Source: a virus
Taxonomy: Duplodnaviria; Caudoviricetes
Length of the DNA stretch: 61,107 nucleotides
Direction: 5' to 3' (one strand)
IMG/VR virus record: IMGVR_UViG_3300043429_000621
Span: 1 to 61,107 of that record
The translations under genes were made by a program, and so were the position numbers. How positions within the stretch are numbered: position 1 is the first letter of the stretch; each line of letters begins with the position of its first letter. Shown here piece by piece: positions 3,654-60,774 of the stretch. The notes below the pieces were generated by a model, which ran no database searches, was not told the origin of the DNA, and was given only the letters and a program-made list of their open reading frames with translations.

Positions 3654-4111
3654 CAAGCGATCCGGATGATGGCGTTCGTGGCGTCTGCGGTCGGGAAGAT
3701 GATCACGAAGTCGCCGGAGGTCGAGGTTTTGTCCGAACCGAAGTCAAGGATGCAGACCGTCGGATTGGTCAGACCAGCCGAAGACGTCGTGTTCGGCGTG
3801 GTGTTGTAGATCATCGCCCCGCGCGCCGTGATCGTGGCATTGGTAAAGGTCAGGTCGGCGAAGTCCGTGAAGCCGGTGGTGCCGGAGGTGGTCGGCGAGA
3901 TGTTGGTCAGGGTGCCGCCGCCCGCCGCGTAGGAGCCGGACGCGCTCACCTCGTTGGTTGAGGTGTAGGTCGTGGTCGCCGCCGTGAAGCTGGCCGAGTT
4001 GGTGTAGAGCGCCAGCTTGAAGACGTCGCCCGTGGTCAGCGTGAAGTCGTGGCAGCCGCGCAGGAGTTCCCCCTTGAACGACGTCGCCATGAAGTTTCCG
4101 GTGAATGGCAT
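3653..4111 (-). CDS. Virion structural protein
   Basis: [17 protein letters not shown]...FKLALYT...Y.AGG.TL...GAMIYN pattern typical of podophage virion proteins; TGATG-coupled. Confidence 0.6.
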
Positions 4112-13925: not shown

Positions 13926-15179
13926 TCAGGCGTTCTTGCCGTACTTCTCGGCCTTCTCAAGGCGACCTTCGCCCGATCCGGCCCCGTACTTCATCTTCGG
14001 ATAGACCTTGCCGCCGTCCTTGCGCGCCATGGGCATGGGCGGCATCGGGCCGGACGGGCCACCGGCGGGCGGCATCGGTGCGCCAGCGGCTCCAGCCAGT
14101 GCTGCGCCCAAGCCGGGCGGTGCGCCCACGGGGTGCTGCATCGGCGGCGGGGCTGCGGGCATCGGCGGGCGCGGCATCATCGCGGGCGGCATCGGCGCGG
14201 GCATCGGCGCGGGGGCAGGCATGCCGCCCATCTTGCCGAGGCTGCCGTCGTGATGCGGCGAGATGATGATGTTGATGTTGGTCTTGCCCTTGCCGGTGCG
14301 ACCGCCGTCCTTGCGCGCCATCCGGCCATGCACAGCGCCGCCGCAGGCTTTGCAGGTGCAGCCCTTGTCGTGCTTCTTGTCGGCGGCGGACTTCTCCCAC
14401 TCCTTCATGGTCATGCCATGCTTCTTGGCAAGTGCCTTGTCCTCAGCGACGTCCTTTGCTGACCCTTCGACTGCCCCGCCCTTCTTTTTGGCCATCATCT
14501 GAGGAATGATGCCCAGTGGTGCCATCTTCTTTTCCGCCAGTGCGCCGCCGATGTTCTTGGCCTCGCGGCCACCGCTGTCGGGACCGGCGGAGGTGATGGG
14601 CTGGGCGTTCGACCCCGCCGCGCCACCGCGCTGCTTGGCCACCTTGCCGCCCCGCTTGTGGCCGTCGCCGGAGTTTGCCGCGCTGTCCAGCATGGCCTGA
14701 CCCTTCATCTCCTCCGCCGTCGGGCGGGGCATCGGGCGGCGCGGGCTGTCAGGGCTTTCCGTGGTGCGCGCGGCGCTGTCCAGCTTCTCCTGCGCCATCA
14801 GGTCGTCGGGACGCTTCATCGGACGCGGGGATGTCAGCATGCCGCCGCTGGCCTTCTTGGCCACGCCGCCGGTCTTCAGGCCACCGACATGCTTGGTGCC
14901 TTCGCGCTCCTCGTTGGCGTCTTTCTGGTTCGTGTTCGCCAGTCCAACCTTCTCTTGGAACCCGCGCGGGGTGCGGTCGGCGCGGCGCTCCGTGGCCTCG
15001 CCCTCGACCTTGCCGCCGGTCTTGAAGGCGCGGCGCGAGATCGGGCGCATGCCCGTTTTCACATCGGCGTTCAGCTTCTCGGCGGGGGTGAAGTCGGAAC
15101 TATCGACTTTTTCGGACGAGGCACCGGCAAGGCGCTTGGCCTTTGCCTTCATCGCCTCGCGCAGGCTTTTAGCGTCCAT
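13926..15179 (-). CDS. Basic low-complexity internal virion protein with about 10 xxxGGxV-type motifs
   Basis: 417 aa rich in K/G/A/P/M; repeats include FKTGGKV, HKRGGKV, KKKGGAV and RKDGG twice. Confidence 0.7.
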   Translation of the reverse strand: MDAKSLREAMKAKAKRLAGASSEKVDSSDFTPAEKLNADVKTGMRPISRRAFKTGGKVEGEATERRADRTPRGFQEKVGLANTNQKDANEEREGTKHVGGLKTGGVAKKASGGMLTSPRPMKRPDDLMAQEKLDSAARTTESPDSPRRPMPRPTAEEMKGQAMLDSAANSGDGHKRGGKVAKQRGGAAGSNAQPITSAGPDSGGREAKNIGGALAEKKMAPLGIIPQMMAKKKGGAVEGSAKDVAEDKALAKKHGMTMKEWEKSAADKKHDKGCTCKACGGAVHGRMARKDGGRTGKGKTNINIIISPHHDGSLGKMGGMPAPAPMPAPMPPAMMPRPPMPAAPPPMQHPVGAPPGLGAALAGAAGAPMPPAGGPSGPMPPMPMARKDGGKVYPKMKYGAGSGEGRLEKAEKYGKNA

Positions 15180-17903: not shown

Positions 17904-19739
17904 CTAGGGTTTGAGGCGCATCATAGCACCGGCACCATCTTTGGTGAAGCGGCGCGTGACGGCCAGCGCCCTGTCGACTTTTCCGCCGCGCCGGAAGGCC
18001 GGAAAGCCCTTGTCGAGGACGCTCTGCTTCAGCTGGTCGGTCATCGGCAGGTGGAAGCCCTGATAACCCTCCGGCAGCTGAACCGGCTCGGCGGGCTGGA
18101 TCGACGGATCGTGCTGGCGCGCAAGGTTCATGACGCTTTTTGGCACGATGTTGTCGTAATAGCCCTTCATGCCTTGGCCGCCGACCTTCATGTCGTCGCC
18201 CTGCAGCATGTGGTAGGTCGATCCGTCGAACTCGCTGGTGCGCGCGCTGCTGGGGTGCAGCAGCTTCTCCGACAGTTCCTTCCCGATCAGGCTGGGCAGG
18301 TCTTCCGGATCGACGTCCGGCTTGGCGATGCGTGTGCTGTTTCCCTGCAGCGCAGACAGGGTGCGGTCTTGCGGCCAGTACTTGATGCTGTCCACCTGCT
18401 TCTCCAGCCCGTATCGGTCGGCCTGCGCCTGCCCAGGCGTGAAGACGATGCCGTCATAATTGCCCAGCGCCGCCTCGCGCAGCACGTTCTTCAGCGCCAG
18501 ATCGGTCCAGTGCTGGGTGTTGGTGACGTAGGGGCCGGTAGGCACCTTGCCTTGCTGGTCGATGGTCGCGTCGCGCAGGGCATTCAGCTTGTCTTCCTCG
18601 CCGTGAAACTTGGCCAGATGCCACGGCTCCGCGTTTTCATAGAGCGGGCGGGCAACTTCCTCACGCATGCCCTGATCCAGCAGGCTCTGCCGCATGCGGC
18701 CCCGCATGTCCTCGATGTGGTCCCTGTAGGCCTTCATGGCCGACCCGTCGTTGAACCCCTTGTCGCGGCCCTCCTGCGCCCAGTCGGACTGCAGTTCCTC
18801 GACATGCAGCAGGCGCTTGCCGAGGCCCTTCTTGCCGGTGAACTCGTTCTGCCAGCCCTTGATCTGGGTCAGCGTCGCTGCCTCCTCCGGCGTGATCAGG
18901 CCGTTCTGGACGGCGTACTTGGCCGCGCCGGAACCGAGATCGGCGGGGGTCGTTCCCATGTGATCGGCGATCTTCTGCATCACCGGCATCACCCACTGCT
19001 TGGCCTCGGCAAAGCTGCTGGTGGGGCCGACCTCCCGATCCGACAGCCGGATGTGGGCCAGCACGTTTGGGTGGCCCGACCAGTGGCTGGACTGGTAGGC
19101 GGGGGGCTGTGTGCGCTCCGGCATGGTCGCCAGCTTCCGCCGGAACTCGTTGGCCTGCTCTTCGAACTGCTGTCGTCTGGGGTGACCCTCCGGCCACGCG
19201 CTGGCCATCACTTCGGCCTTGCGCATGGCGTCCTCGTAGGGCTGGCGCAGGTCTTTCGGGCGGTCCAGCTTCAGCAGGCGCTCACGGTAGTTCTTGCCGC
19301 CGGACAGGACATAGTCCCCGTATTCGGTGTCCAGCGGCTCCTCCGCGCCGGTGTCCTCGTCCTCGCGCGTCTGAACGTTCGGGGAGGCGGACACGCGGCG
19401 CTGCAGCCGATCTGCCTCGGCGCGCTCCTCCGGCGTCAACTCCTCGCCGCGATGCGAACGGTTCTGCAGCGCGATCCGCCGCTGGTTCTCGTCGCGCGAC
19501 AGGTAGTTCGGGTTCTCGCCATACTGGTCGATGCGCAGCTTCGGCAGGTTCCGCTCGAAATGCTGCGCCAGTTCTTCGCGGGTGATCTTGCCGGTCGGCG
19601 GCTTGGCATGCGCCAGTTCCGCATCCTTCACGCCCGCCTTCTTGGCGGCGGCGATCATCTGCTCTGCCGTGCCGCGCTCCTGCGGGAACTGGCGGATCAG
19701 CTGGGCTGCCTTGGAATAGAGGCCGGTCTTCGGGTTCAT
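17904..19739 (-). CDS. Large polyvalent-type internal virion protein with SHW...EELQSDW domain
   Basis: NYRERLL, SHWS..PNVLAHIR..DR, VEELQSDWAQ, W.DLALK, GMKGYYD. Confidence 0.65.
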   Translation of the reverse strand: MNPKTGLYSKAAQLIRQFPQERGTAEQMIAAAKKAGVKDAELAHAKPPTGKITREELAQHFERNLPKLRIDQYGENPNYLSRDENQRRIALQNRSHRGEELTPEERAEADRLQRRVSASPNVQTREDEDTGAEEPLDTEYGDYVLSGGKNYRERLLKLDRPKDLRQPYEDAMRKAEVMASAWPEGHPRRQQFEEQANEFRRKLATMPERTQPPAYQSSHWSGHPNVLAHIRLSDREVGPTSSFAEAKQWVMPVMQKIADHMGTTPADLGSGAAKYAVQNGLITPEEAATLTQIKGWQNEFTGKKGLGKRLLHVEELQSDWAQEGRDKGFNDGSAMKAYRDHIEDMRGRMRQSLLDQGMREEVARPLYENAEPWHLAKFHGEEDKLNALRDATIDQQGKVPTGPYVTNTQHWTDLALKNVLREAALGNYDGIVFTPGQAQADRYGLEKQVDSIKYWPQDRTLSALQGNSTRIAKPDVDPEDLPSLIGKELSEKLLHPSSARTSEFDGSTYHMLQGDDMKVGGQGMKGYYDNIVPKSVMNLARQHDPSIQPAEPVQLPEGYQGFHLPMTDQLKQSVLDKGFPAFRRGGKVDRALAVTRRFTKDGAGAMMRLKP

Positions 19740-21646
19740 GTGGTCCTCCGGATCGCAGCCATCGCTGCATCGTACGCTGCACCGCCCGACGCCCGCCGGA
19801 TGCGCGGATCGGTCGGGTCAAAGACCTCGGCCTCCTTGTGCTTGATCGCGTTGGGCTTGAACACGACCACCTCGGTGATCTGGTGCGGGCGTTTGCCGGA
19901 GTGGTCCTTGGTCTTGACCAGTACGCCGTCGTGGCCGCGCTCTTGCATGTGCTGCATGAACTGGTCCATGTCGCGCCCTTCGATAATGTGGTGCGGTTCC
20001 AGCTTGCCCTGTCCCGTCATCAGGCCCATGGACTGTAGGTCGCGCAGGGTGCGGTGGGCGGCGTTGTCTGACGAGGTGTCCCAGATGTATGGGTTCTTCA
20101 GCGCCGCATGCAGCGGGCCGATGACCGTGCCCTCGCCGATCATGTCGGGATCGGCATAGGCGTCGGCCAGTCCCTCTTCCGGTGTCAGGTAATGCCCGCG
20201 CCCGCGCCAGCCGTGATCTGTGTTGCTGCCGATCTTGGCGTCATCGAAGGCCTCAAACTCTTCCGGATGCGGGGTGCCGTGCCAGAGGTCCATCGGCTTG
20301 CCGTCGTCGCCCAGCAGGTCTTCGTGCATGCCCTCGAACATGGCAGGGACCGCGCCCCCAGCGGCAAAGGCCTGACGGCGCGGCAGGTCGGCAGTGCCGG
20401 CGGCGGCGTTGATCTGCTTCACCTCGTCATCGGACAACACGCGGTTGACCTTCATGTGGCCGCCGATCAGCCAGTTGCCGGTCATGTTCGGGTTGGTCTT
20501 GTAGCGGTAGAACCCGCCCAGTGGCACCTGATCGGTGATGTGCGCCTTCACGCCCTTGCCACGGCTGTCGGCCACGCTCTGCCAGTCCTTGTCAGCGGCC
20601 ATCTCGATCTCGGCCCAGACCTGATCGTCGGGCCGGTAGTCTGGCTTCTTCAGATCGGGGCTGGACTTGCCGCCAATATGGGTCGCGATGGGCAGGTCGC
20701 CAGCATGCCAGCCTGGCCGGTAGGCCAGATCGCCCAGCTTGGACTTGACCTTGCCCGCCGTCTTGCCCTGCGGCCCCTCTTCCGCTTCCAGCCACTGGCC
20801 TATCGGCACCGGCTTGTCGGCATGTACGAAAAGCGGCATCAGCTGGGCGCCTTTGCGCCGGAACAGCTTGTAGGCCTTCACGGTGCGCTGCGGGGTGTAG
20901 CCGCCCGCGACCGCGCCGCCGTCGGCGTAGCCGTACCTCTGGTTTGCCCAGTCCCGCGCCCAGTCTGGGATGCTGTCGCGGCTGTAGGACGGCCCCCACG
21001 CGCGCGGGTCGGCGACGTCGAAGTGCAGGGCGTTGTCGTAAAAGCCGATGCCACGAAACCCAGCCTCCCACGCCGCATCGGCCAGTCTCAGCCGGTCCTC
21101 GTAGGACAGGCCGGAGGCGTCGATGTCATAGGCGTTGCCGTGCATGTGCTGGCTGCCCTTGGCCCCACCAACTTCCTCGTTGCGCTTCGGGTCGCGGTAG
21201 GCCGAGTTCACGGTCAGCGGCTGGCCCCACGCATCGGTCAGGCGGCCCCACGCCGCCAGCGCGGCCTCGGACATGCCGCCATGGTCGGCGCTGGGCGCGG
21301 GCTGGGGCGCGGGCGCAGATGCCTTCTCCTCCTCCTTGCCAAAGAGGCCGGTGGCAGTGTCGCCGATCTTGTTGGCCGCGCCCGCGAGGCCCGCCAGCGC
21401 CTCCAGCGCGGTCGGCTGGGCCGATCCGGTCTGCAGCGGTGCGGCAGTCGCAAGGCGGCGCGGCACCGGCAGGTTGGCGGCGGGGACATAGCCGCCGGAA
21501 GCATGCGCCTGACGCGGGACATCGGGCAGATATTTCGACGGGGCGATCTGGCCACCGGCGCGGTCCTTCGCCTCTTTGGCCCTGCGTTTGTCCAGCAGCG
21601 CGCCAAGGGTCAGCTTGGCCGCGCGGATCGCCTTGTCGTCGCTCAT
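19736..21646 (-). CDS. Polyvalent protein: M15 peptidase + unknown (ART-like?) domain + ADP-ribosyltransferase (ART-PolyVal-like)
   Basis: SAYR...N..VGGA.GSQH.HGNAYDI...GIGFY...LHFD; DGKP..LWHGT...GRGHYLT...LKNPY...GHDGV...EVVVF.P..IK. Confidence 0.78.
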   Translation of the reverse strand: MSDDKAIRAAKLTLGALLDKRRAKEAKDRAGGQIAPSKYLPDVPRQAHASGGYVPAANLPVPRRLATAAPLQTGSAQPTALEALAGLAGAANKIGDTATGLFGKEEEKASAPAPQPAPSADHGGMSEAALAAWGRLTDAWGQPLTVNSAYRDPKRNEEVGGAKGSQHMHGNAYDIDASGLSYEDRLRLADAAWEAGFRGIGFYDNALHFDVADPRAWGPSYSRDSIPDWARDWANQRYGYADGGAVAGGYTPQRTVKAYKLFRRKGAQLMPLFVHADKPVPIGQWLEAEEGPQGKTAGKVKSKLGDLAYRPGWHAGDLPIATHIGGKSSPDLKKPDYRPDDQVWAEIEMAADKDWQSVADSRGKGVKAHITDQVPLGGFYRYKTNPNMTGNWLIGGHMKVNRVLSDDEVKQINAAAGTADLPRRQAFAAGGAVPAMFEGMHEDLLGDDGKPMDLWHGTPHPEEFEAFDDAKIGSNTDHGWRGRGHYLTPEEGLADAYADPDMIGEGTVIGPLHAALKNPYIWDTSSDNAAHRTLRDLQSMGLMTGQGKLEPHHIIEGRDMDQFMQHMQERGHDGVLVKTKDHSGKRPHQITEVVVFKPNAIKHKEAEVFDPTDPRIRRASGGAAYDAAMAAIRRTT

Positions 21647-49300: not shown

Positions 49301-50424
49301 TGCAACGCCACCGTGTTGGCCAAGGTGAACCCGTTGCACTTCGTGATGTAGACGAAGAAGTCATGTCCGTTCGTCGTGGTGAACGGGTTCCCTGCGGTCC
49401 GGCTGAACCCAGACAGCGTGATGGCACCGGCGGACGCGCCATTGGTGATCTGGATGACGAGGGTGTAGTCGCCTGCGGCGGACGGAGCCGCCAAGGTGAA
49501 GGCCCCGTTGTTGACGATCCGCTTCATGTTCCCGCCCACCGGCGTGGGGGTATAGGTTCCGGACGACTGTGTGCCGTCATCATCCGCCGTCGTGGTGATC
49601 CCAGCGTAGTCGAGGGCCTGCACGGGCGTTCCGGTCGCCAGCCTGCCGGTGATGACCGTGTCGCCCGCCAAGGTCATGGCACCGGTCGAGGTGATGCGAG
49701 CCACCTCGGATGCGGCGGCACCGCCAGCCATCAGCGCGAGGACGAAATCAAAGTCCTCCGACCCAGAAGAAACATCCGTGGCAATCGCGGAGACCGTCAT
49801 GCCAACCTCGGTGTTGCCGACCGCCGTCTCTGCCGCGAAACCCATGGTGGTTCCGATGCCAGCGGCAGGTGTCCCGCTCGACTGGCTGTCGATACGCAAC
49901 GCCTCCGTGGCCGTGTTCGTGGCGGCAGTGCCGGCCTGAATGGTCAGGCGCGTCCCGTTGTAGGTCAGGCCCGCCGTGCCTATAAGGGTTCCGCCGCTGT
50001 TGTAGGCGACAGTCCCGTCACTTCCGACCGACCCGACGCTGCTGTCGACGGTGTAAATGTTGGTTCCGTCCGAGTAGACCGAGCGGCGCGTCCCAGACGC
50101 GACTGTGGTGGAAGCGCCTCCGGCGACGTTACCGATGGTGAGGGTAAAGCTGCCGGTGGTGTTGTTGGACACGATCCACTCGCCGCCGACGCCGGACGGA
50201 ACCTGATAGGTCACGTTCGACGTCAGGACGCCGGTGAAGTTCAAGATCAGCTTCTGGTATTCCGAAGCGGTCAGGACCACGGGGGACGCGCCGACGCCGG
50301 TGACGCTTTTCGTGGTCACGCCGCCCAGTGCGGCGTCCAGAACGCCGAAGTTGGTGTTCAGCGGCGTGTTCCAGTTGGTGGCGTTCAGGGCGGGTTGCTC
50401 TAGGCCCTTGTTTGCTGTTGCCAT
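49297..50424 (-). CDS. Tail fibre/spike protein
   Basis: WN.PLNTNF..LD N-terminal anchor; VYSDGTN; T/G/S-rich. Confidence 0.7.
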   Translation of the reverse strand: MATANKGLEQPALNATNWNTPLNTNFGVLDAALGGVTTKSVTGVGASPVVLTASEYQKLILNFTGVLTSNVTYQVPSGVGGEWIVSNNTTGSFTLTIGNVAGGASTTVASGTRRSVYSDGTNIYTVDSSVGSVGSDGTVAYNSGGTLIGTAGLTYNGTRLTIQAGTAATNTATEALRIDSQSSGTPAAGIGTTMGFAAETAVGNTEVGMTVSAIATDVSSGSEDFDFVLALMAGGAAASEVARITSTGAMTLAGDTVITGRLATGTPVQALDYAGITTTADDDGTQSSGTYTPTPVGGNMKRIVNNGAFTLAAPSAAGDYTLVIQITNGASAGAITLSGFSRTAGNPFTTTNGHDFFVYITKCNGFTLANTVALQ

Positions 50425-52388
50425 CAGATGCTCCTGTTCGCCACTTCAAGGGCATGCGCGATGTGATCATCATGCACATCCAGCAGGGCTTCGGTTCCCT
50501 TGCTGATCCCCTTCTTAGCACGTTCCGCCGCGACCACCAACTGGTCCGCAAGGCTGTCGTGGTTGACACCCACGCGGCCACCGGACTTCCTGCCAGCGCG
50601 CTCCATGACACTGGGGACCGAGGATGCGCCGCCTATTGCTCCTGCGGCAGTTCCGGTCAGGCCACTGGTCGAGTTGACCAGCTGGTTCCCCAGATACCGC
50701 TGCACCATCGGGTTCATCGCGGTTCCGCGAAGGGCGTCCTTGCCGAACTCGTACAGCGGACGCCCGATGGCGGCACCCGTGGCGATGCCGGTCATCAGGG
50801 GGCCTGCGCCGAGGAACTGCGCCCCCTGAAGCGCGCCGAAGCCAGCGCCTGCAGCCGTGGCCAGCGGGCCAGCCTTCCGCACGACGCTGTCAACAAGTCC
50901 GTGCCGGACGGTCTTCGGGAGAGGGTTCAGCATGGAAAGGGCGTTTCCTGCAAACTCTCCGATCTCACCGCGCCGACCGGTGACAATGCCAGCCTTGTCC
51001 TGCTTCGCCAGTGCGGCCATCAGGTCTTTGGGCGTGATGATGCCTTCCACACCAGCAGCTTTCGTCATCTTGAGCGCGTCCTGCACCGCGAGGAAGTTGC
51101 GGTACTGGTCGCGCGCCTCCTGCCACGCCTTGATGCGCTCCGGCTGCCCCATGGCCCGCATGGAGTTCTCCAGTGCCTCGTCGATGGCCTCGCGCAGCAT
51201 GAAGGAGGTGCCGCGGATACCCTCGCTGTCGCTGTAAAGAAGCTTTCCGAGGCTCGACCGCCACGACGCAAGCTGGTCTCCGGCAATAGGGGTTCCGGAG
51301 TTCATCGACTGGTTGATGCGATCCAAGATGCCACGGATCAGCGGGATGCGCTGCGCATCAGGCGTCATGTCATCGTAGAACTTCGCAGCATCAGCCGCTT
51401 TCAGGGCAAGCGGCATGCTTGGCGGCACATCGACGCCCGCGACCGAGGACCGCAGCTGAGATGTGATCCGCTGCTCCGCTGCCGCCATGGCCTGCGGGGT
51501 GGCGAGGTCATCGGCGGAACCGAGGAAGCGCATGCTGGCCGAGGTGAATGCCTTGGCCTGCTGGCTGTCTGGCGCGGCCCCAGCGATCATCTGGCCCAAC
51601 GGCGTGTCCGCTTCTGCATTCAGCACGGAACGGCTGCCGGTGGCCTGTCCCGCCGTCACCGGAACACCCCGCGCGCGCATTTCGGCAGCTGCAGCAATGC
51701 GGGCCGGATCAGCGCCGCCGGTCGGAGAAATAATGCCGCGCACAAGGTTTTCCGCCTTGTTGGCCGCGACACCGCCGAGGATCGCGCCCGCGAGGCGCGC
51801 CGCCGGTTCCATGTATGGGTTGGATGACCTCTCTGCCAGCTGACCGGCGAACTCACTGGCAATGGCGGGAGCGACCGCGCCGCGCAAAACGGTGGGGAGG
51901 ACGGATGTGCCGCCGGTCAGCGCCGTGGCTGCGGCGCTTGGCACAAACTCCCCAATGGTTCCAGCGTATCGCCCGATCTGCGTCTGTGGCTCGTAGCCCA
52001 TCACGGACGGCAGTTCGCGCGTCACGGTGTCGGTGGCCCGCTCCCCGCTGACGGCTCTGCCCATCGCGCCGGGCATAACCGCCATGGCCCCACGCTCCAT
52101 CCACTCCGGAATGTCTTTGCCGGTCAGGTACTCCGCCGCGCGGAAGCCGCCGGAAACGATGTCCCCAGGCATATCTGCCAGTGCCGCCGTGCCTTTGACG
52201 ATGCCAGAACCGAGAGACTTTGCGGCATCCATGAAGGTGTCCCCCATGGATGGCTCCTGACCGACAGCCTTGAGGAGTTCTGCGTCACTGGGGCCGCTGG
52301 GCGCAGGCTTTCCCTGCGCCGACGAAGGGGCCTGAAGCGACCGGAGAAGTTCCTCGTCGCTCACGCCGCTAAGATCAGAACCCGCCAT
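50424..52388 (-). CDS. Ejection (DNA transfer / internal virion) protein
   Basis: A/G-rich and helical; DLSGVSDEELL start; GVPVTAGQATG motif; follows the SLT-bearing ejection protein. Confidence 0.7.
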   Translation of the reverse strand: MAGSDLSGVSDEELLRSLQAPSSAQGKPAPSGPSDAELLKAVGQEPSMGDTFMDAAKSLGSGIVKGTAALADMPGDIVSGGFRAAEYLTGKDIPEWMERGAMAVMPGAMGRAVSGERATDTVTRELPSVMGYEPQTQIGRYAGTIGEFVPSAAATALTGGTSVLPTVLRGAVAPAIASEFAGQLAERSSNPYMEPAARLAGAILGGVAANKAENLVRGIISPTGGADPARIAAAAEMRARGVPVTAGQATGSRSVLNAEADTPLGQMIAGAAPDSQQAKAFTSASMRFLGSADDLATPQAMAAAEQRITSQLRSSVAGVDVPPSMPLALKAADAAKFYDDMTPDAQRIPLIRGILDRINQSMNSGTPIAGDQLASWRSSLGKLLYSDSEGIRGTSFMLREAIDEALENSMRAMGQPERIKAWQEARDQYRNFLAVQDALKMTKAAGVEGIITPKDLMAALAKQDKAGIVTGRRGEIGEFAGNALSMLNPLPKTVRHGLVDSVVRKAGPLATAAGAGFGALQGAQFLGAGPLMTGIATGAAIGRPLYEFGKDALRGTAMNPMVQRYLGNQLVNSTSGLTGTAAGAIGGASSVPSVMERAGRKSGGRVGVNHDSLADQLVVAAERAKKGISKGTEALLDVHDDHIAHALEVANRSI

Positions 52389-52400
52389 TTTGCGCCTCCC

Positions 52401-55400
52401 TTACGGCTGTGACGGAGGGGCAAAAGTCCCATCCGGCCTCTTGGTGTACCCGCGCCTCAACAGTTCCGCCTCCGCCGAGGCGGGGTCGATGGCCTCTCCA
52501 GCGAAGCGCGGCATGCGGGCATAGCTGTCGTCGACATACTGCTGGAACCGCTTCCCGCCATCGGCGAACGCCTTCTGATAGGAGAAGATGTCTGTGCCGT
52601 GGATCGCGGGGTCGTAGCTGTTGTAGAGGTCCATCTTGTAGCGGGCCTCGGCCTCGGCGATGGCCAGAAGCTTCTTGATTGCCTCCGGCTGCATGTCTGG
52701 GCCAGGCGTGATGGTCTGCAGAAACTCGATGGAGGCCGCAGGTGCGCCGCCAGGCAAGGCTGACAAGCGCGCTGACATGATTTCGCCGGTCCCCTTCAGC
52801 GCGATCTGGTACTGCGCGGGGTCGGTCAGATCGTACGACTGCCAGCCGGTCATGTTGTTCGGGTCGATGGCGGACAAAAGCGCGCCAGCCTGCGCGCCGA
52901 GGCCTGCCAGCGATCCCGCCTCCATCTTCTGGTACACGCCCTTCATCTGGGCGATGGCCGAAATTTGCCGAGCCGAGGCATCCATCACCTCAGGCGCTTC
53001 AGCGCGGAAAGCTGCAGTGGCTTCTCGGTTTGCAGCAGCTTGGGCCTGCGTGTCGCCCACGGAGACGTAGCCTGGTATCTGGAACTGTTCGCCAGTCCGC
53101 GCATCCACGGTCATGCCGCCGCTGGCGTTGATCTCGTCCAGTCGTGCCTTGGCGGCCTGCACCTGACGCCCAATCGGCGTGTCGGGTCCGTAGAAGTTGT
53201 TGTCCTGAATGAACCGTTGCAGGGAGACCGGATCATCCTGCATGCGGACGGTGCGGCCTCCGATGTCCACGCTGCCGTTTTGGAACGTACGATAATCCAG
53301 CTTCTCCAAGCCGGTCTCAGTGGTTGGGGTATATGCGCCCGACAGGATGTCCTGCGCCGTTGCCGTTTCAGGAAACTGCAGGGTAATGCCGTTCATGCGG
53401 GCGTACTGGGCGGGGGTCAGGTTGGTGCCGTTCAGTTCGTTCCACTGCATCGTGTCCATGGCCACGGCGCGCATGTTTTCGAGGTTCTTGGCCCCGATGT
53501 CCGCGCGGCGCTGCTCCAGTGCGCTGTAGGTGTTGGCGAAGCCGCCAAGGCCCTGCAGGATGGCAGAACCGAGATACAGCGACGGCGAGGACGCCATGGT
53601 GCCGAGGCCGGACAGGGCCGACAGGACGAAGTCCTTGTTCAGGCGACCATCCTTGTCATAGGCCATCTGGCCGAGGCGGCTGCGCTCCTCGTAGGGCTTG
53701 TCCGAGGTCAGCATGCCCGCGCCAAGGCCGCGCTCGTCACGCGCAGCCGGTGCGCCGCCACCCACGCCCGCACCGCCAGAGGGGACGCCACCAGCGGTGG
53801 ACAGGACGTAGTTTTGGGTCTCTTCGGGCAGATAATCGAGGTAGTTGCCGCCCAGCGCCGTGGCGCGGTCCAGTGCGGAAGACAGCGCGCTCGGCCCCGC
53901 ATTGTAGGCAGCCGCCGCCTTGTCGAGGCTGCCGAAGCGCCGATACTGCTCAAGGAAGTAGGCCTCACCGATAGCAGCATTGTACTCCGGATCGTTGAGC
54001 CAGCGGTCGCGGTCCCACTCCAGTCCGGCCAGTTTGGCCGCTTCCGGACCGGTGGCCTCCATGACCTGACCGATCCCGACCGCGCCCTTGGGCGACGTCA
54101 GGGGATTTCCGTTCTCGTCAAACTGGCGATACCCGCTTTCCTGCTTCAGGATTTGGGTGCGGTAGAAGGTCGAGGGATCGGCTCCGGCGACGCCAGTGGG
54201 CGCGCGAGGTGCGGGCGACTGCCCAACCGTTCCGTCCGCAACTCCGCCCGCCAGAGGGGTCGGCTGTCCTGCGGCAGGGACTACCGGCGGCCCCTGAACC
54301 TCCGGCGCGGGAACCAATCCCGCCGGACGGGGTTGGGGACGCGGGGAGGTTGCCATGGGCGGCACATCCTGCGGAACAGGAGGCATCTCAACAGCAGACA
54401 AGCCGGTGCCAGCGGTCATCGGCATCGGCGTCGGAGCGGGGCGCTCCGGCGGCACGACACCGCCAGCGGGAACTGGCGCGGGCGAGGCTTCTGTTGCGTT
54501 GAAGCGGTCCCGCGCAGCCTGCGGCATGTTCCCTTCTGCGGCAGCTGCCAGAAGTTCGGCAGCCGTCATGCGGCGCTCTTCCTCCGGTGCGCCGCCGTCA
54601 GCATAGGCAGGCCGCACAAGGCCGCCCTGATAGAACTTGTGCGCTTGGCTGTAGTCGACGCGCTTCATGCCGTCGGGGCCGGTCATCACGGCGTTCGGAT
54701 GGCGATCTTCCACCTCGTCTGCCATGAAGCCGATATGGGTCTGTTCGCGGTCGTCGCCCTTGTACTTGAAGCTGTAGATCGGCAGGCCGTGATCCGTACG
54801 ACCGATGCGGCGGATGTCGTGCTTCATCCGGCGGTCGGAGAAGATCGTCGAACCCAGTTTGATGATGCTGGCAATCGAGCCTGCGGCGTCGCCGATCTGC
54901 CCCAAGGTGCTTTGCGGTGCGCTTGGCGTACCCCCGCTGGGGGTCATGACGCCCTTGTCTTTCTCGTCCTCCTGCGCCTTCAGGGTGTCGGAAAGGTAGG
55001 TCTCGCGCCCGACAGGCTGGTCAAGCTTGTCTTTTTGCAGGTAGGCAGCGCCACCGGTGGCGCGGGCGACGCCCCCACGGTAATTGGGGTTGCGGTCGAA
55101 GATGTCCCAGAAGTCCCCGCCTTTGCCGAAGGTTTCCTTCAGGTTGACCATGTTCTCACCGAAGCGGGATGCCGCATCCAGTTGTTGCGCCAGATTGCGC
55201 TGCGAGTTGTCGAGGCCAGCGCTGTCTGCCACCATCAGTTCGCCGACCGGCAGGACGGCCTGCGGCACATACCCAGCGCCATAGGGGTTCTCGGAGCCGA
55301 AAGACGCGCCGTACGGACCGGCGACGCCGCCGCCGTTGGCCTTGGTGGCGCGGTCGTAGTCCACGGTCTTGTAGCCGCCGGAAACGCCAACGGCCTCCGG

Positions 55401-56369
55401 CTTAACCTCTTCCACCTCGTCTGCCATGAAGCCGATATGGGTCTGGTGGCTATCGTCGCCCTTGTACTTGAACTTGTAGATCGGCAGGCCGTCGTCGGTG
55501 TGACCAATCCGGCGCACATCCTCCTTCAGGCGGCGATCCGAGAAGAACGGCGCGGGCTGCGTCGTGGTCGTGGTCGATCCGGACAGCGCGCCGGTCCCCA
55601 TGGCGATGTTCGCAAGGAACTGCGCGACTTGGAACGGGTAGGCCTGCTGCTGCATGAACTGGTTGTAGAGTGCCGACAGGCCAGCCTGTTCGGTCTGCTG
55701 GCCTAGCGTTCCGGCGTTGATCATCGCCTCGCCGCCCTGAATTCCGGCCTGCTGCGCCGCCTGACCGAGGCCCGCGTAGAACTGGCCGCCCTGCATCAGG
55801 CGGGCAAGATCGGCCTGTGTCGCGCCCAGCTGGACGCCCTGCTGCTGCTGGGCGGCCTCCAGTGCCTGCTGGTAGTTCTGGGCGTTCAGCCCAGCCAGCG
55901 TGGACCCCATGGCAAGGCCCTGCTGGTTGGCAAGGTTGGCCGCCGCGATGCCAGCGCGGTCTCCGCCAAAGGCCCCAGACGAAATCGCGGTCCCCAGCGC
56001 GCCAGACTGGGCCTGCTCGTTCGCCTGACCCATCTGGCGCATGGTCGCGTCGATGACTTGGCTTTGGTAGGGGTTCAGGAACCGCTCGATGTCGAGGTTT
56101 TGCGGCTGGGCCGACTGCATGCCTTGCGCGAAGGTCGGGGCTGCCCGATCAAAATAAGGCTGGTACGCCCCCGCTGCGCTGTTGATCCGGTCAATCCCCG
56201 CGCCCTGCTGTGCGTTCAGCTGGGCTACGAAGTCAGACGGGTTGGTCGAGTAAATCTGAAATGGCGTACCCGCCACCCCCTCCGCGCGCGCATTGACGGC
56301 CCTGTATCGCGCCATGACCTCCGGCGGGATCGTTACCTTCTGCGTCGTGGTAGAGGATTTGCCGCCCAT
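52401..56369 (-). CDS. Large ejection protein with two internal peptidase-S74 domains and a lytic transglycosylase domain
   Basis: Q/A/G-rich N-terminus (GAFGGDR); SDRRLK...GFMADEVE...VDY twice; QESG...GAVGIGQVM...AAYNAGP...ETQNYV. Confidence 0.85.
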   Translation of the reverse strand: MGGKSSTTTQKVTIPPEVMARYRAVNARAEGVAGTPFQIYSTNPSDFVAQLNAQQGAGIDRINSAAGAYQPYFDRAAPTFAQGMQSAQPQNLDIERFLNPYQSQVIDATMRQMGQANEQAQSGALGTAISSGAFGGDRAGIAAANLANQQGLAMGSTLAGLNAQNYQQALEAAQQQQGVQLGATQADLARLMQGGQFYAGLGQAAQQAGIQGGEAMINAGTLGQQTEQAGLSALYNQFMQQQAYPFQVAQFLANIAMGTGALSGSTTTTTQPAPFFSDRRLKEDVRRIGHTDDGLPIYKFKYKGDDSHQTHIGFMADEVEEVKPEAVGVSGGYKTVDYDRATKANGGGVAGPYGASFGSENPYGAGYVPQAVLPVGELMVADSAGLDNSQRNLAQQLDAASRFGENMVNLKETFGKGGDFWDIFDRNPNYRGGVARATGGAAYLQKDKLDQPVGRETYLSDTLKAQEDEKDKGVMTPSGGTPSAPQSTLGQIGDAAGSIASIIKLGSTIFSDRRMKHDIRRIGRTDHGLPIYSFKYKGDDREQTHIGFMADEVEDRHPNAVMTGPDGMKRVDYSQAHKFYQGGLVRPAYADGGAPEEERRMTAAELLAAAAEGNMPQAARDRFNATEASPAPVPAGGVVPPERPAPTPMPMTAGTGLSAVEMPPVPQDVPPMATSPRPQPRPAGLVPAPEVQGPPVVPAAGQPTPLAGGVADGTVGQSPAPRAPTGVAGADPSTFYRTQILKQESGYRQFDENGNPLTSPKGAVGIGQVMEATGPEAAKLAGLEWDRDRWLNDPEYNAAIGEAYFLEQYRRFGSLDKAAAAYNAGPSALSSALDRATALGGNYLDYLPEETQNYVLSTAGGVPSGGAGVGGGAPAARDERGLGAGMLTSDKPYEERSRLGQMAYDKDGRLNKDFVLSALSGLGTMASSPSLYLGSAILQGLGGFANTYSALEQRRADIGAKNLENMRAVAMDTMQWNELNGTNLTPAQYARMNGITLQFPETATAQDILSGAYTPTTETGLEKLDYRTFQNGSVDIGGRTVRMQDDPVSLQRFIQDNNFYGPDTPIGRQVQAAKARLDEINASGGMTVDARTGEQFQIPGYVSVGDTQAQAAANREATAAFRAEAPEVMDASARQISAIAQMKGVYQKMEAGSLAGLGAQAGALLSAIDPNNMTGWQSYDLTDPAQYQIALKGTGEIMSARLSALPGGAPAASIEFLQTITPGPDMQPEAIKKLLAIAEAEARYKMDLYNSYDPAIHGTDIFSYQKAFADGGKRFQQYVDDSYARMPRFAGEAIDPASAEAELLRRGYTKRPDGTFAPPSQP
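54651..55541 (-). repeat. Internal duplication of the S74 coding unit (about 55356-55541 and 54651-54839)
   Basis: Near-identical DNA blocks, e.g. TTCCACCTCGTCTGCCATGAAGCCGATATGGGTCTG in both copies. Confidence 0.85.
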
Positions 56370-56866
56370 CAGGAGCCTCCTTCAGCCCCGTCGGAGAGGC
56401 CTGTTTTTGCGCCGTAGAGGAAGTATACACCAGCCGGTGCGCCGAAGACACGCTCATAAAGCCGGATTTTCGCCTCCGTACGAGACGAAGAAAGAACCCC
56501 GATAGCCAGCGGGAGTTCAAGCGCGTTCGCCGTCATCTTTGCAAACTCGGCCAGTTTCCTCGCCCTTCCACCTTTCGCCGCCCTGTATTCTGGGTCAACG
56601 AAGATTGCTTTTTCTTCCAGTATCAGTTCCTTGCTGTACCACATCTCGCCCATGGATAGAAGGACCATGCCCTCCAGCTTTCCACCCACGGGTCCGATCA
56701 CGCCGCAAATGCCGGTCTGCCGCGTCAGCGAACCCCAGATCGTCAGGGCCAGCTTTTCGATGTCAGGGGCCACCACTGCGTTCTCGCGCGTCGCCGCCAA
56801 AGAGATGTCCATCATCCCGTTGAAATCCGCCTCGACGCCCGTGCGAACAACCACATCATCCATCAT
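56369..56866 (-). CDS. GNAT-fold acetyltransferase-like protein
   Basis: IFVDPEYRAAKGG.A.KL...A...LYERVFG. Confidence 0.65.
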   Translation of the reverse strand: MMDDVVVRTGVEADFNGMMDISLAATRENAVVAPDIEKLALTIWGSLTRQTGICGVIGPVGGKLEGMVLLSMGEMWYSKELILEEKAIFVDPEYRAAKGGRARKLAEFAKMTANALELPLAIGVLSSSRTEAKIRLYERVFGAPAGVYFLYGAKTGLSDGAEGGS

Positions 56867-57385: not shown

Positions 57386-57727
57386 TCACGAATAGCTGAT
57401 GGCGATGGTCTGGCCGGTGCCAGGCGCGACCACGATGCCGTTGTTGACAGGAAGGTTGATCTCGGTGACCCCGACCGTGGTCGGCAGGACCGCGATCTGG
57501 TTGGTCGTGGACGAGGCGGTGGTGGCGTCATAGATCGCCCCCGCCGCGCTGCCAGCGACCACCACCGAGACGCGGGCCACACGGCCCTGACCGGCCTGCA
57601 CCAAGGTCGCTGCGGTGATGCCGGACGCCATCTTCGCGCCCTCGACCTGCAGGTAGGTCTGCCCCAGCTGGTTCAGCGCCGTGACGATGTTCTTGGAGGC
57701 GGTCAGGATGTCGGTCAGAGAAGCCAT
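57386..57727 (-). CDS. Small virion protein
   Basis: Helical N-terminus plus a beta domain; TGATG-coupled to the nozzle gene. Confidence 0.6.
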   Translation of the reverse strand: MASLTDILTASKNIVTALNQLGQTYLQVEGAKMASGITAATLVQAGQGRVARVSVVVAGSAAGAIYDATTASSTTNQIAVLPTTVGVTEINLPVNNGIVVAPGTGQTIAISYS

Positions 57728-60021
57728 CAGAATTTCCCGTCGGACTGGAGGCGGTAGCGGATGTTGCCCAAGCGCCAGAACGAGCCTGTGTCGTTGCTCT
57801 CGATGCGGATCGACACAAGGCGGCCCCGCAGGCGCGGCGTGATGTAGGTCGTGGCCTCCGTCACCGTATAGGGGCCATGAACGCGCGGCGTCTGGCTAGG
57901 ATAATCGGCGACGTAGAAGGTGATCATGACGTTGGCCCCTTGGGAGCCGCCGTAATAACCCCACTTCATGTCCGGCCAAACCTGATCAACGAAGACTTTC
58001 ACATCCCCGTCTTCCAGCGCGAACCAGCCGGTCTGGACGTAGGCGTTGATCGGCTGGCCGTCCGCATCTGTCGAGGTTTCGTGCTGGTAGATCACGTTGT
58101 CCCCGCCAGCGCCTATGGGTGCGCCGAGAACCGACTGGTCGATCCATGCGGTGCGCGTCAGGGTTCCGAAGTCCCAGCTGCCGGTCTGGGGGCTGAACTT
58201 GACGTATTTGGTCGGGATGCCGCCGGAACCGATGGTCGGATAGTACCAGATGACCTCCCCGAAACGGGCGTTCGTGGCGCAGCGGATGCGCTCGACGTAA
58301 TCCATGTCGATATCTTGGAAGATCACATCCCAGACGGGGCAGGTGATCGTCTGAACCCCGCCGCCGGACAGGGAGAAGAACTGGCTTTGCGACATCCAGT
58401 ACACCTCGCCGTTCAGCGTCGCCGCAGCGCGCCGCCCGATCAGGCCACAGCCGGTGCCGATCTCGTTGAAGGACCAGACCAGCGGCAGGTTGATGTACTG
58501 CATCGACCAAATGCCGATGTCGGTCCACAGCAAGCCCTGCTGCGGACCCTGCAGGCCGCCCACGATGCGAGACCCCTTCGGAATACGGAACGAGCCAGCC
58601 TGATTGGTGACCGTTCCAATCCAAGAGGTGAAATTGGCGATGTCGCACCAGCGGACCAGAAGCGGGTCTTGGATGCCGGTGAAGGTCGAGCCGTAGGCGA
58701 TGATCTGGCGCTCCGGCATGGCCACGAAGCAGCCTTCATTTACCGTCGGGGCGTTGGGAACCACCACCGCATACGTTCCGCCATCCGACGGGTTCCAGTA
58801 ATAGATTTCGCCACCCTCTGGGTTTGCAATCAGGTATTCGCCCCAGTTGTCCAGAGACCAGTCGGTTGTGCCGCCGAAAGCCCAGACGTTCACGCTCAGC
58901 GTTCCGGCGACGGTCTGCGCCGTCAGGGTGGACGGCACGGTAAAGCTGACCGTGGACGTCGCTCCACTGGTGTAGGCGGACACGGTCCATGTGCCGTTGT
59001 AGCCGGACGGCGTCACCCCAGACACGGTGATCTGAGACCCGACCCGAACGGCATATTCTCCGGAGAAGCTGACCGTGGCGGTCGTGCCGGTGCAGGTGGC
59101 GTTCGTCGTCGCAAAGGTCCGTCCACCCGCCGCCGTGACGCCAGTACCGTAGCCGCCCGCACCATACCCGCCCGCGCCGTACCCCGTGGAAGGTGGCAGG
59201 GACGTTTGCCCGACGTAATAGGTGATCTGCGGCTTTCCGCCGTTTATGGAAACGGTGGCAGCGCTGGTCGCGCTGTTCTCAGCCGCGATCACGAAGACGC
59301 TGGCGGTTGTGACCGACTGGACGAGGTAGTTGCCGTAGAGGGTGATGCCGCCAACCGTCGTGGGGACGAGGACGGGGAAGGTGGAACCTACGGAGTACCC
59401 GTGGTTGGCCAAGGTTACAGAGACCGAGGAGGAGCCGCTCGTCGTGGTGAACGAAGCCACGGCACCGCCCGCTGCGACGGTGGACGTTGCAAGCGCAGGA
59501 AGCCCGATGGCGTTCTTGGCAAAGACCGAGTAGCGGTTGGATGTCGCGGCTTCGCAGGTGTAAAACCCGAACAGAACCAAGCCGCCGACGGACACATGCG
59601 TCGCCAGAAAGATGCTGTCGAAGCTGGAAACGTTCGACCCCGTGTCGTCGATTTCAACCTCGCTCTGCCCGCTCGTCGTGTTGAACGAAAGGGTGGGGCT
59701 GGCGACGTATTTCTGCGGAGACCGCGCGGACAACTGGCGGGACGCCACGGTCGCCCCTTCGATGGTGTAGAGGCCGTTCTCACTGCCGATGCCGAGATAG
59801 GCATTGGAGTTGGTGTCAGCCCAAGCCCAAAGCGCGCGCACCACCGCCGTCATGGGCTGATTGAAGTACCGCGTCCAGCCGCCTATTTTCTGCGGCAGCG
59901 CGAGGCCCTGCCGGTCCGGCACAAAGCGGATCAGGTTGCTGTCGGAGATAGCCGCTTCGTTCAGCGCCGGAGTGCGGTTCTGATCGACGCCTGGCACCAG
60001 CTTGAGGGAGGCGTGAGGCAT
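57727..60021 (-). CDS. Tail nozzle / head-closure protein (P22 gp10 / tubular B-like) with inserted beta domains
   Basis: PQKIGGW, WSLDNWGE.L, DPLLVRWCD, LLWTD, F.EV.W.YP, RTAW.D, RLRGR, WRLG..R. Confidence 0.75.
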   Translation of the reverse strand: MPHASLKLVPGVDQNRTPALNEAAISDSNLIRFVPDRQGLALPQKIGGWTRYFNQPMTAVVRALWAWADTNSNAYLGIGSENGLYTIEGATVASRQLSARSPQKYVASPTLSFNTTSGQSEVEIDDTGSNVSSFDSIFLATHVSVGGLVLFGFYTCEAATSNRYSVFAKNAIGLPALATSTVAAGGAVASFTTTSGSSSVSVTLANHGYSVGSTFPVLVPTTVGGITLYGNYLVQSVTTASVFVIAAENSATSAATVSINGGKPQITYYVGQTSLPPSTGYGAGGYGAGGYGTGVTAAGGRTFATTNATCTGTTATVSFSGEYAVRVGSQITVSGVTPSGYNGTWTVSAYTSGATSTVSFTVPSTLTAQTVAGTLSVNVWAFGGTTDWSLDNWGEYLIANPEGGEIYYWNPSDGGTYAVVVPNAPTVNEGCFVAMPERQIIAYGSTFTGIQDPLLVRWCDIANFTSWIGTVTNQAGSFRIPKGSRIVGGLQGPQQGLLWTDIGIWSMQYINLPLVWSFNEIGTGCGLIGRRAAATLNGEVYWMSQSQFFSLSGGGVQTITCPVWDVIFQDIDMDYVERIRCATNARFGEVIWYYPTIGSGGIPTKYVKFSPQTGSWDFGTLTRTAWIDQSVLGAPIGAGGDNVIYQHETSTDADGQPINAYVQTGWFALEDGDVKVFVDQVWPDMKWGYYGGSQGANVMITFYVADYPSQTPRVHGPYTVTEATTYITPRLRGRLVSIRIESNDTGSFWRLGNIRYRLQSDGKF

Positions 60022-60024
60022 ATC

Positions 60025-60774
60025 TTACCCCCGCGTCGGCGATGCGATGGGCGCGGGCGACTGCGACGACCAGCCTGCGCTTTCGAACTTCTTCCGCATC
60101 TCCTCGACCGACGCACCCTTCAGCAGGGCTTGGTATTGGCTCTCGTAGGACTGCGCCATCTGCGGGTCGTCCGACTGCCGCCCGAAGTTCCGCTGGTAGG
60201 CCGAGATGTAGACCATGGACGCCATGATCAGCAAATCAGGCAGGTACTGGCTGATGAAGGTTGTCGGGTTGACAGCCGACATGGCGTTCGGGCGGTAAGT
60301 GCCGACCACCTCGACATAGTAGGTCTGGTCGGGGACCGGACCCACGAAGAACAGGTTCTCGTTGAACGGCGCGAAGTATTGCGGCTGCCCCCTGCTGGCC
60401 ACGGCATTCGACCCGTACACCATGTCGAGGAATTCCTTGGTGGTCGGCAGCAGGGTGACGCGTTGGGCAGACCCTTCATCCGGATTGGTTTCACCGGCAG
60501 GCAGGATCAGGTTCAGCTGCTCGGTGACCACGATGGTGCCGGAGCCGTCCGGCAGCGTCATCGGGAAGTCCAGATTGCGGTTGCCCGCGTCCAGCTTGAT
60601 CGACGGGCCATGGAACGCCGTCGAGGTGTTCATCAGGTCCAGATCGCGGTAAATGCGCAGCTCTGCGTAGTCGATCATGGCCGGAAGGATCGCCAAGAAG
60701 TTGACGTCGTCCGGAGCCACAACCGCCATCTCGGCGATCTGGGTCACATAGGTGTTGTAGGTCAATCCGGCCAC
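60025..60774 (-). CDS. Head-tail adaptor / tail tubular protein A-like
   Basis: I.YAE.RIYRDL, GQPQYFA, GPVPD..Y.VE, PDLL..AS, YE.QYQ. Confidence 0.72.
   Translation of the reverse strand: MAGLTYNTYVTQIAEMAVVAPDDVNFLAILPAMIDYAELRIYRDLDLMNTSTAFHGPSIKLDAGNRNLDFPMTLPDGSGTIVVTEQLNLILPAGETNPDEGSAQRVTLLPTTKEFLDMVYGSNAVASRGQPQYFAPFNENLFFVGPVPDQTYYVEVVGTYRPNAMSAVNPTTFISQYLPDLLIMASMVYISAYQRNFGRQSDDPQMAQSYESQYQALLKGASVEEMRKKFESAGWSSQSPAPIASPTRG

Follow-up and report, generated by a model that had tools for sequence, protein, structure and literature searches.

Two short S74 domains at the module joints of a fused internal-virion-type protein of an uncultured podophage: a chain that probably cuts itself

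The virus record IMGVR_UViG_3300043429_000621 (Duplodnaviria; Caudoviricetes), analysed here over its full 61,107 bases and referred to below as the window, is complete, with direct terminal repeats, and is the genome of an uncultured short-tailed phage (podophage) that also encodes terminase, portal, primase, helicase and tail-fibre genes. One of its genes encodes a protein of 1322 amino acids (aa) that is composed of three modules, namely a helical one (residues 1-276), a family-specific middle one (345-510) and a cell-wall-cutting one with an SLT domain (596-1322), and a short Peptidase_S74/ICA domain of about 68 residues is located exactly at each module joint. Since two domains of a self-cutting type stand exactly at the joints, the sequence suggests that the protein is made as one chain which probably cuts itself into pieces. 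Judging from gene order, the SLT domain and family names, the product appears to be an internal-virion protein of the DNA-ejection type. Its parts are as follows.

52401..56369, minus strand: whole gene of the putative fused internal-virion (ejection-type) protein, a single open frame of 1322 aa, stop codon included
55542..56369, minus strand: module 1, residues 1-276, Gln/Ala-rich and helical (AlphaFold2 helices 16-33, 53-84, 100-176 and 184-256)
55338..55541, minus strand: S74 domain 1, residues 277-344, beginning SDRRLK (Pfam and six-frame genome search; predicted local distance difference test score, pLDDT, of the block 84-90)
55311..55337, minus strand: GG motif 1, residues 345-353 (NGGGVAGPY), start of module 2, predicted disordered
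54840..55337, minus strand: module 2, residues 345-510, with a conserved N-terminal peptide to about residue 382 and helices 386-414, 419-425 and 460-468
54633..54839, minus strand: S74 domain 2, residues 511-579, beginning SDRRMK (six-frame genome search, 43.2 bits)
54585..54632, minus strand: GG motif 2, residues 580-595 (YQGGLVRPAYADGGAP), conserved in the alignment, predicted disordered
53853..54155, minus strand: SLT lytic transglycosylase domain, residues 739-839 (Pfam PF01464, E 2.1e-12)
52404..53852, minus strand: C-terminal region, residues 840-1322, where family searches gave nothing beyond SLT

Two S74 domains, starting with S277-DRRLK and S511-DRRMK in the middle of the chain, had been proposed in a first-pass annotation made from the letters alone, and their presence is confirmed by Pfam, by a six-frame search and by the translation. 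Pfam Peptidase_S74 (PF13884) matches two stretches of the protein (whole-protein E 9.1e-23), the better of which, residues 277-327, covers profile positions 1-57 of 58, and the six-frame search of the whole record gave exactly two S74 matches, at 55389-55541 (47.7 bits) and 54687-54839 (43.2 bits), with a profile cut-off of 22 bits. The two copies are spaced 702 nucleotides (nt) apart, in frame, and are 70% identical in protein and 80% identical in DNA over 163 nt, meaning that the two copies described in that annotation stand while their supposed near-identity does not; they are old, diverged copies. Concerted evolution between them was considered and set aside, the signal being small (73.5% identity within proteins, compared to 71.3% between first and second copies of different proteins and 79.5% among first copies).

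The residues expected to perform the cut are among the best kept of the protein. If the query is aligned with 53 relatives that have two domains (n=54), S277, D278, R279, R280, L281 and K282 of the first domain and S511, D512, R514 and K516 of the second are invariant, and 293 of the 295 S74 copies across all proteins collected retain both the Ser at position 1 and the Lys at position 6. The mean majority-residue fraction reaches 0.84 and 0.83 in the two S74 stretches, compared to 0.76 in module 1 and 0.57 in module 2, making the S74 stretches the best-conserved parts within residues 1-620. Only two copies deviate at the catalytic positions, the second one of P0091 with Phe instead of Ser and one in P0169 with Glu instead of Lys; loss of function or an error of sequencing may explain them. 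Among PHROG families, phrog_6121 (“virion structural protein”) matches residues 103-344 with its profile positions 173-390 of 392, and phrog_4287 (“DNA ejection protein”) matches residues 485-576 with positions 292-386 of 392, the S74 stretch forming the C-terminal end of both 392-position profiles.

An AlphaFold2 model of residues 1-620 has a mean pLDDT of 61.1, and within it both S74 domains (about 280-345 and 512-578, block pLDDT 84-90) are confident, strand-rich units. The stretches that follow them, residues 345-391 and 582-601, fall below pLDDT 50 without any helix, which argues that no long helix is predicted behind either domain; together with the S74-ended proteins of cultured relatives, which stop 62-72 residues past the Ser, this agrees with the earlier remark that the long C-terminal coiled coil is lacking. 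Since Foldseek matched the 620-residue model only to long-helix look-alikes (E-values above 0.2), the domain was folded alone (residues 268-352, mean pLDDT 70.5). With this single-domain model, ranks 1-3 of Foldseek were occupied by chains B, C and A of the MyRF ICA structure 7dc3, at weak E-values of 0.034-0.082 and a probability of 0.93-0.97. VIA-align likewise placed 7dc3_A first among 48,161 chains (Z 3.4, root-mean-square deviation (rmsd) 2.6, 58 residues aligned), followed by K1F 3gw6_A (Z 3.2, rmsd 4.4, 62 aligned) and 3gud_B (Z 3.0, rmsd 3.2, 58 aligned), all three at low scores, with the T5 domain 4uw8 at rank 41 (Z 2.1).

The closest structural match also offers the model for what the protein may do. 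In ICA domains a Ser and a Lys five residues apart form the catalytic dyad, an Arg stabilises the oxyanion, and cleavage requires trimerisation; in MYRF the ICA domain is internal, and it splits the chain into two oligomers, itself remaining with the C-terminal one (Li et al., 2013, PMC3742443; this and the other papers cited by PMC number are cited from the part of their text accessible to us). By analogy, chains of the 1322-aa protein would associate, probably as trimers, each S74 domain would then fold, and its own Ser and Lys (S277/K282 and S511/K516) would cut the bond just before the Ser, the same cut that is known from phage endosialidases and MYRF, with predicted sites at F276-S277 and F510-S511. 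Three fragments would result, 1-276, 277-510 and 511-1322, and as in MYRF each S74 domain would stay at the N-terminus of the downstream fragment. We regard such MYRF-like self-cleavage at both joints as fairly likely, with oligomerisation, cleavage, virion location and ejection all inferred.

Counterparts in cultured phages show what the first joint corresponds to. When residues 1-620 were compared with 50,697 phage records by translated search, 63 records matched; only MW202675.1 covers at least 80% of the query, and nearly all others among the matches listed fall within the span of the two S74 domains. Three of these records, all from cultured phages, were examined, and each has a gene of 328-339 aa that ends with the same short S74 domain and is preceded by an acyltransferase gene.

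Brucella phage Tb gp23: S74-ended gene, Ser to stop 65 residues, followed by a 138-aa gene, a Phage_lysozyme2 protein (729 aa) and a 500-aa protein
Sulfitobacter phage pCB2047-C gp9: S74-ended gene, Ser to stop 66 residues, followed by an “endolysin” (643 aa) and a 670-aa protein
Rhizobium phage RHph_N2 gp12: S74-ended gene, Ser to stop 72 residues, followed by a 744-aa protein and a 675-aa protein

The gene for the lysin or large protein comes directly after the S74-ended gene in pCB2047-C and RHph_N2, and after the 138-aa gene in Tb. Cultured podophages thus encode module 1 as a separate S74-ended gene, and hence the first joint is a gene boundary elsewhere. The expectation that relatives encode these segments as separate genes is thereby borne out for joint 1, but it does not extend to module 2, which matches only 44 representatives among 1.84 billion at E<=1e-3; none of these 44 has it as a stand-alone gene, all full-length ones carrying it in a long fused protein after module 1, and no relative split at the second joint was found among them. 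P0247 and P0259 begin inside module 2 and may be cut by contig ends.

As for the modules themselves, a Pfam search of modules 1 and 2 at E<=5 found nothing except one chance-level match. Module 1 ends with a weakly hydrophobic Gly/Ala stretch (246-264, hydropathy 0.94) and then TTTTTQPAPFF, and module 2, which carries internal GG pairs at 432-433 and 439-440, ends with the most hydrophobic 19-mer of the whole protein (residues 492-510). The beginning of module 2, residues 345-382 (55261-55337, minus strand), is a highly conserved peptide of the form GGGVAGPYG ... YVPQA.LPVGELM in which Y353, V368, P369 and L373 are invariant; the monomer model predicts it to be disordered, and it may serve in binding or need an oligomer to fold. 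Behind the second joint a Pro-rich linker (about 596-735) leads to the SLT domain, whose region is also matched by NCBIfam lytic transglycosylase families, below their cut-offs, and which is replaced by Phage_lysozyme2 or PF05838 in relatives. Internal translation starts were considered as another way of obtaining separate products, and no candidate was found at joint 1. Just past the second GG motif, M601 (54567-54569, minus strand) is an in-frame ATG with a GGAGG upstream at a plausible distance, and it was rejected because the Met is absent from the inspected homologues and the GGAGG is part of a Glu-rich coding sequence.

The first-pass annotation had further described each S74 domain as closed by a GG motif. 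The motifs are real and largely invariant: they comprise G346-G348 (KANGGGVAG) and G582-G583 (FYQGGLVRP), with a further GG at 592-593, and in the 54-sequence alignment G347, Y353, G582 and G583 are invariant while G346, G348, V349, A350, G351, P352 and G593 are kept in at least 90% of the sequences. GG motif 1 is retained in relatives without S74-1 (P0256, P0258 and P0262), GG motif 2 is kept in relatives without S74-2, such as P0002, and an invariant pair, G432/G433, occurs inside module 2. Among the split-gene phages, pCB2047-C and RHph_N2 have a GG in the first 11 residues encoded by the downstream gene, and Tb gp24 has none until its C-terminal end. Given that the motif is present without S74, inside module 2 and near the starts of split downstream genes, the conserved GG behind each S74 domain looks like the beginning of the next module rather than a signal that closes S74.

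The surroundings of the gene bear on the nature of its product. Within the window the flanking genes relevant here are the following.

60025-60774, minus strand: tail-tube-A-like gene (family match)
57727-60021, minus strand: tail-tube-B-like gene, 764 aa (phrog_3287, E 2.7e-69)
56369..56866, minus strand: upstream neighbour, a GNAT-like protein of 165 aa in the IVP-A position (weak Acetyltransf_7, E 0.0039, below cut-off, and phrog_1249)
50424..52388, minus strand: downstream neighbour, a 654-aa protein in the position of the last large internal virion protein, without family match, syntenic in related loci

Two small genes (p113 and p173) lie between the tubeB-like and the GNAT-like gene, a 375-aa gene beyond the 654-aa gene has no family match, and the counterparts of the 654-aa protein measure about 670 aa in pCB2047-C and RHph_N2. 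Across 19 related viral loci, some of which are cut by contig ends, the order tubeB-p113-p173-GNAT-1322-aa gene-p654-p375 is kept wherever the locus extends far enough. The position after tubeA-like, tubeB-like and GNAT-like genes is shared with Tb, pCB2047-C and RHph_N2, which upholds the earlier placement of the carrier among internal-virion (ejection) genes. In these lineages internal virion protein genes generally come after the core tail genes, and the gene labelled IVPA has a homologue in P22 gene 14 (Hardies et al., 2023, PMC10386132); here the IVPA gene is identified by position as the acyltransferase gene. By the same gene order, module 1 would stand where P22 gp7 and T7 gp14 stand, and the lysin module would take the place of the next large internal protein.

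Two further proteins of the window deserve mention. Near the head genes, residues 728-878 of a 907-aa protein (15169-17892, minus strand) match many PHROG families (best E 2.2e-49), whose names include DarB-like antirestriction, minor head protein, endolysin and virion structural protein, and these C-terminal residues (about 150) may be a packaged effector domain. A 636-aa protein adjoining the portal gene (19736-21646, minus strand) contains a peptidase/endolysin-like stretch (136-224) and a phrog_30118 domain (256-427), being a possible second candidate for a cell-wall enzyme of the virion module.

Several observations weigh against self-cutting of the 1322-aa protein. Although the structural ranks are specific, the matches are weak in absolute terms (VIA-align Z 3.0-3.4; Foldseek E above 0.001), and sequence searches of the PDB with residues 254-610 alone and with a 54-sequence profile gave no match at E<=1. 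The phage domain is about half the canonical length, the solved ICA chains having 120-147 residues, and it misses the C-terminal zipper or coiled-coil helix of canonical ICA domains. In MYRF, the leucine-zipper mutation L683A or deletion of 662-752 blocks processing (PMC3742443), and by this analogy a short domain modelled without a zipper helix might not cut, which is the main argument against activity. As to the carrier, its identification as an ejection protein comes from the gene order, its SLT domain and the names of matching families. A profile comparison detected no homology to P22 gp7 and gp20 (hhalign probability 0.08% and 1.2%).

The distribution of the S74 cassettes speaks in the same direction. 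The homologue search found 2310 proteins of 727-2314 residues at E<=1e-3 among 8000 scored candidates, and the cassettes were counted in the query and the 120 best of these, which come from independent assemblies, with a hidden Markov model built from the copies. By this count two S74 domains are present in 75 of the 121 proteins and a single one in the other 46, which lack S74-2 (73 and 48 by a simple motif scan); in the 44 module-2 representatives, a few of which are truncated, 17 have two, 24 have one and 3 have none. The three without any S74 domain (P0256, P0258 and P0262) have only a short spacer with a GG between module 1 and the conserved GGGVAGPYG peptide. P0263 does carry the cassette, and over the first 60 residues it differs from P0256 at a single position. 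P0260 lacks S74-1 and has S74-2, and in P0002 (GenBank MW202675.1) the second cassette is cleanly missing. On a maximum-likelihood tree of module 1 with 119 rows, from which the N-terminally truncated P0041 and P0087 were left out, the S74-2 (one-or-two) state needs at least 14 changes, at least 9 of them forced by well-supported branches, and shuffled labels need a mean of 37.8 changes, with 0 of 500 shuffles as low as 14. The cassettes are thus dispensable, and therefore the separation of the modules cannot be essential. Since both the cassette state and the C-terminal lysin (SLT, Phage_lysozyme2 or PF05838) vary among close relatives, the cassettes are optional and labile and the protein is a mosaic. 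The existence of zero, one and two S74 domains also means that cutting into three pieces is not a fixed requirement of the protein family.

Some related sequences were also noted for their layout. In the related contigs L024 and L025 (3001-6903) the first S74-like match lies about 1,186 codons past the gene start, and in L023 (3001-6960) two S74-like matches are about 730 codons apart, so module length between cassettes varies greatly. Many of the “short” homologues on long contigs (P0123-P0240) end with Arg/Trp/Cys-rich tails typical of out-of-frame GC-rich DNA. The shorter homologues were considered as split genes, and among 25 matches inspected on contigs of at least 14.8 kb many tails look out of frame and were read as frameshift artefacts; apparent split genes of this family in metagenome assemblies are often such artefacts.

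How the domains could be understood otherwise depends largely on what the short S74 does. If it does not cut, it would be a small oligomerisation or folding module or a conserved recombination linker, and the 1322-aa chain would stay whole in the virion, a reading that we hold to be unlikely. It would suit a domain without the C-terminal helix whose mutation blocks MYRF processing (PMC3742443), and relatives which work with no or one cassette imply that fused modules are functional; the variable cassette state and lysin type among close relatives moreover fit an exchange of modules around conserved S74 DNA. The near-universal retention of both Ser and Lys is, however, hard to explain if the domain only folds, and separate genes of cultured phages have this short domain as their very last part, which is the place of canonical self-removal. 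A more elaborate alternative, already put forward by the first-pass annotation, is that S74 frees the upstream module while a host or phage protease cuts at the GG, so that S74 would be discarded and one frame would give rise to the mature ejection proteins that other podophages make from three genes. The invariance of the GG motifs and their position in predicted disordered linkers are in keeping with this two-cut maturation, as is the fact that the downstream genes of pCB2047-C and RHph_N2 start a few residues before a GG, so that a cut there would mimic the separate product. According to its RefSeq record, P22 gp7 (gene 7, L007 1370-2059) loses its first 20 residues to the host protease OpdA, and this note is a precedent only in that trimming by a host protease occurs in ejection proteins. 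No evidence for an excision of the domains was found; the GG pairs that lack a preceding S74 (G432/G433 and the joints of P0256, P0258, P0262 and P0002) are not tied to S74 removal, Tb gp24 does without an N-terminal GG, and the MYRF domain can simply remain on the downstream fragment (PMC3742443). We accordingly consider a second cut at the GG quite improbable, and in a weaker version of the proposal the GG peptide would be a shared packaging or ejection signal that heads every module.

The remaining alternatives concern the carrier and the record. S74 is usually found in tail fibres and spikes, and one might take the protein for one of these, neither internal nor ejected, given several PHROG tail-fibre families which match its S74 stretch and a fragmentary relative that one public source names “tail fiber domain-containing protein.” These PHROG matches, however, cover the S74 stretch only; the gene follows those for tubeA/tubeB and the acyltransferase, a position that internal virion proteins have in podophages (PMC10386132), the protein has a cell-wall lysin domain and long helices, and the phage has a separate tail-fibre gene at 2214-3656, all of which makes a fibre very hard to credit. 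An origin of the second S74 domain by assembly duplication, raised beforehand as a possible source of error, has nothing in its favour beyond the repeat itself; with 20% of the bases differing between the copies, and with two copies in 75 of 121 relatives from independent assemblies, it is refuted and deserves practically no weight. We retain MYRF-like self-cleavage before S277 and S511 as the most likely reading.

The assembly, counting and maturation of the ejection proteins of short-tailed phages are poorly understood. If the self-cleavage reading is true, a large family of ejection-type proteins, represented by the homologues above, would possess a built-in maturation step that needs no protease. 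Trimers would then be the probable state of the released modules, one that the accessible part of PMC8954989 does not describe for the ejection proteins of T7. Given cassettes that are optional (none, one or two), self-cleavage would let phages fuse or separate ejection modules at little cost, and would explain the free fusion and splitting of ejection genes. For annotation, the case indicates that some family names, and the name given by at least one public source, label S74 in internal-virion-type proteins as “tail fibre”.

A full-text literature search turned up no account of S74 in proteins of the internal virion or ejection type. Term searches returned nothing on self-cleaving or fused ejection proteins from the ejection-protein review PMC8954989 and nothing on cleavage or S74 from the main text of PMC10386132. 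The genome survey PMC10783043 lists a “chaperone of endosialidase” beside acetyltransferase and lysozyme as shared gene families without comment. The 1322-aa protein shares with the ejection proteins of T7 (gp14, gp15 and gp16) and P22 (gp7, gp20 and gp16) the place after the tail tube genes and the IVP-A gene (PMC10386132), and with T7 gp16 a peptidoglycan-cutting domain within one ejection protein (PMC8954989), but the T7 and P22 proteins come from separate genes without S74, and no similarity to P22 gp7 and gp20 was found. The cultured counterparts Tb gp23, pCB2047-C gp9 and RHph_N2 gp12, which are of the phrog_6121 type, are nearer: they have the same short S74 domain, with 62-72 residues from Ser to stop, and their neighbours are tail tube genes, an acyltransferase gene and then a lysin-bearing protein and a protein of 500-675 aa. 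They differ in that the gene stops at S74, whereas the frame in the window continues into two further modules and a second S74 domain, and they show no similarity at the level of BLAST outside the S74 stretch.

The first-pass annotation held that S74 normally occurs once and at the C-terminus, and this is indeed its usual place in fibres and spikes, but the C-terminus is not its only place, as MYRF has it internally (PMC3742443). The structures of K1F endosialidase (3gw6), the “novel intramolecular chaperon” 3gud and the T5 L-shaped tail fibre (4uw8) belong to the same Pfam family and to the same Ser-Lys self-cleavage chemistry (PMC3742443), which is predicted for the present domains from their conserved motif. 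Those domains are single, C-terminal on receptor-binding fibres or spikes, longer and equipped with helices, unlike the present ones, which are internal in an internal-virion-type protein, while the fibre gene of the window phage carries no S74. MYRF, a eukaryotic membrane-bound transcription factor, has one ICA copy per chain where the phage protein has two, and it depends on a leucine-zipper helix for processing where the phage domain is about half as long and without helix. Nevertheless, MYRF shares an internal S74/ICA domain with Ser and Lys five apart at its start, provides the best structural match (7dc3), and its cleavage frees the N-terminal part while the domain remains on the C-terminal fragment (PMC3742443), just as would be expected of each joint in the proposed scheme.

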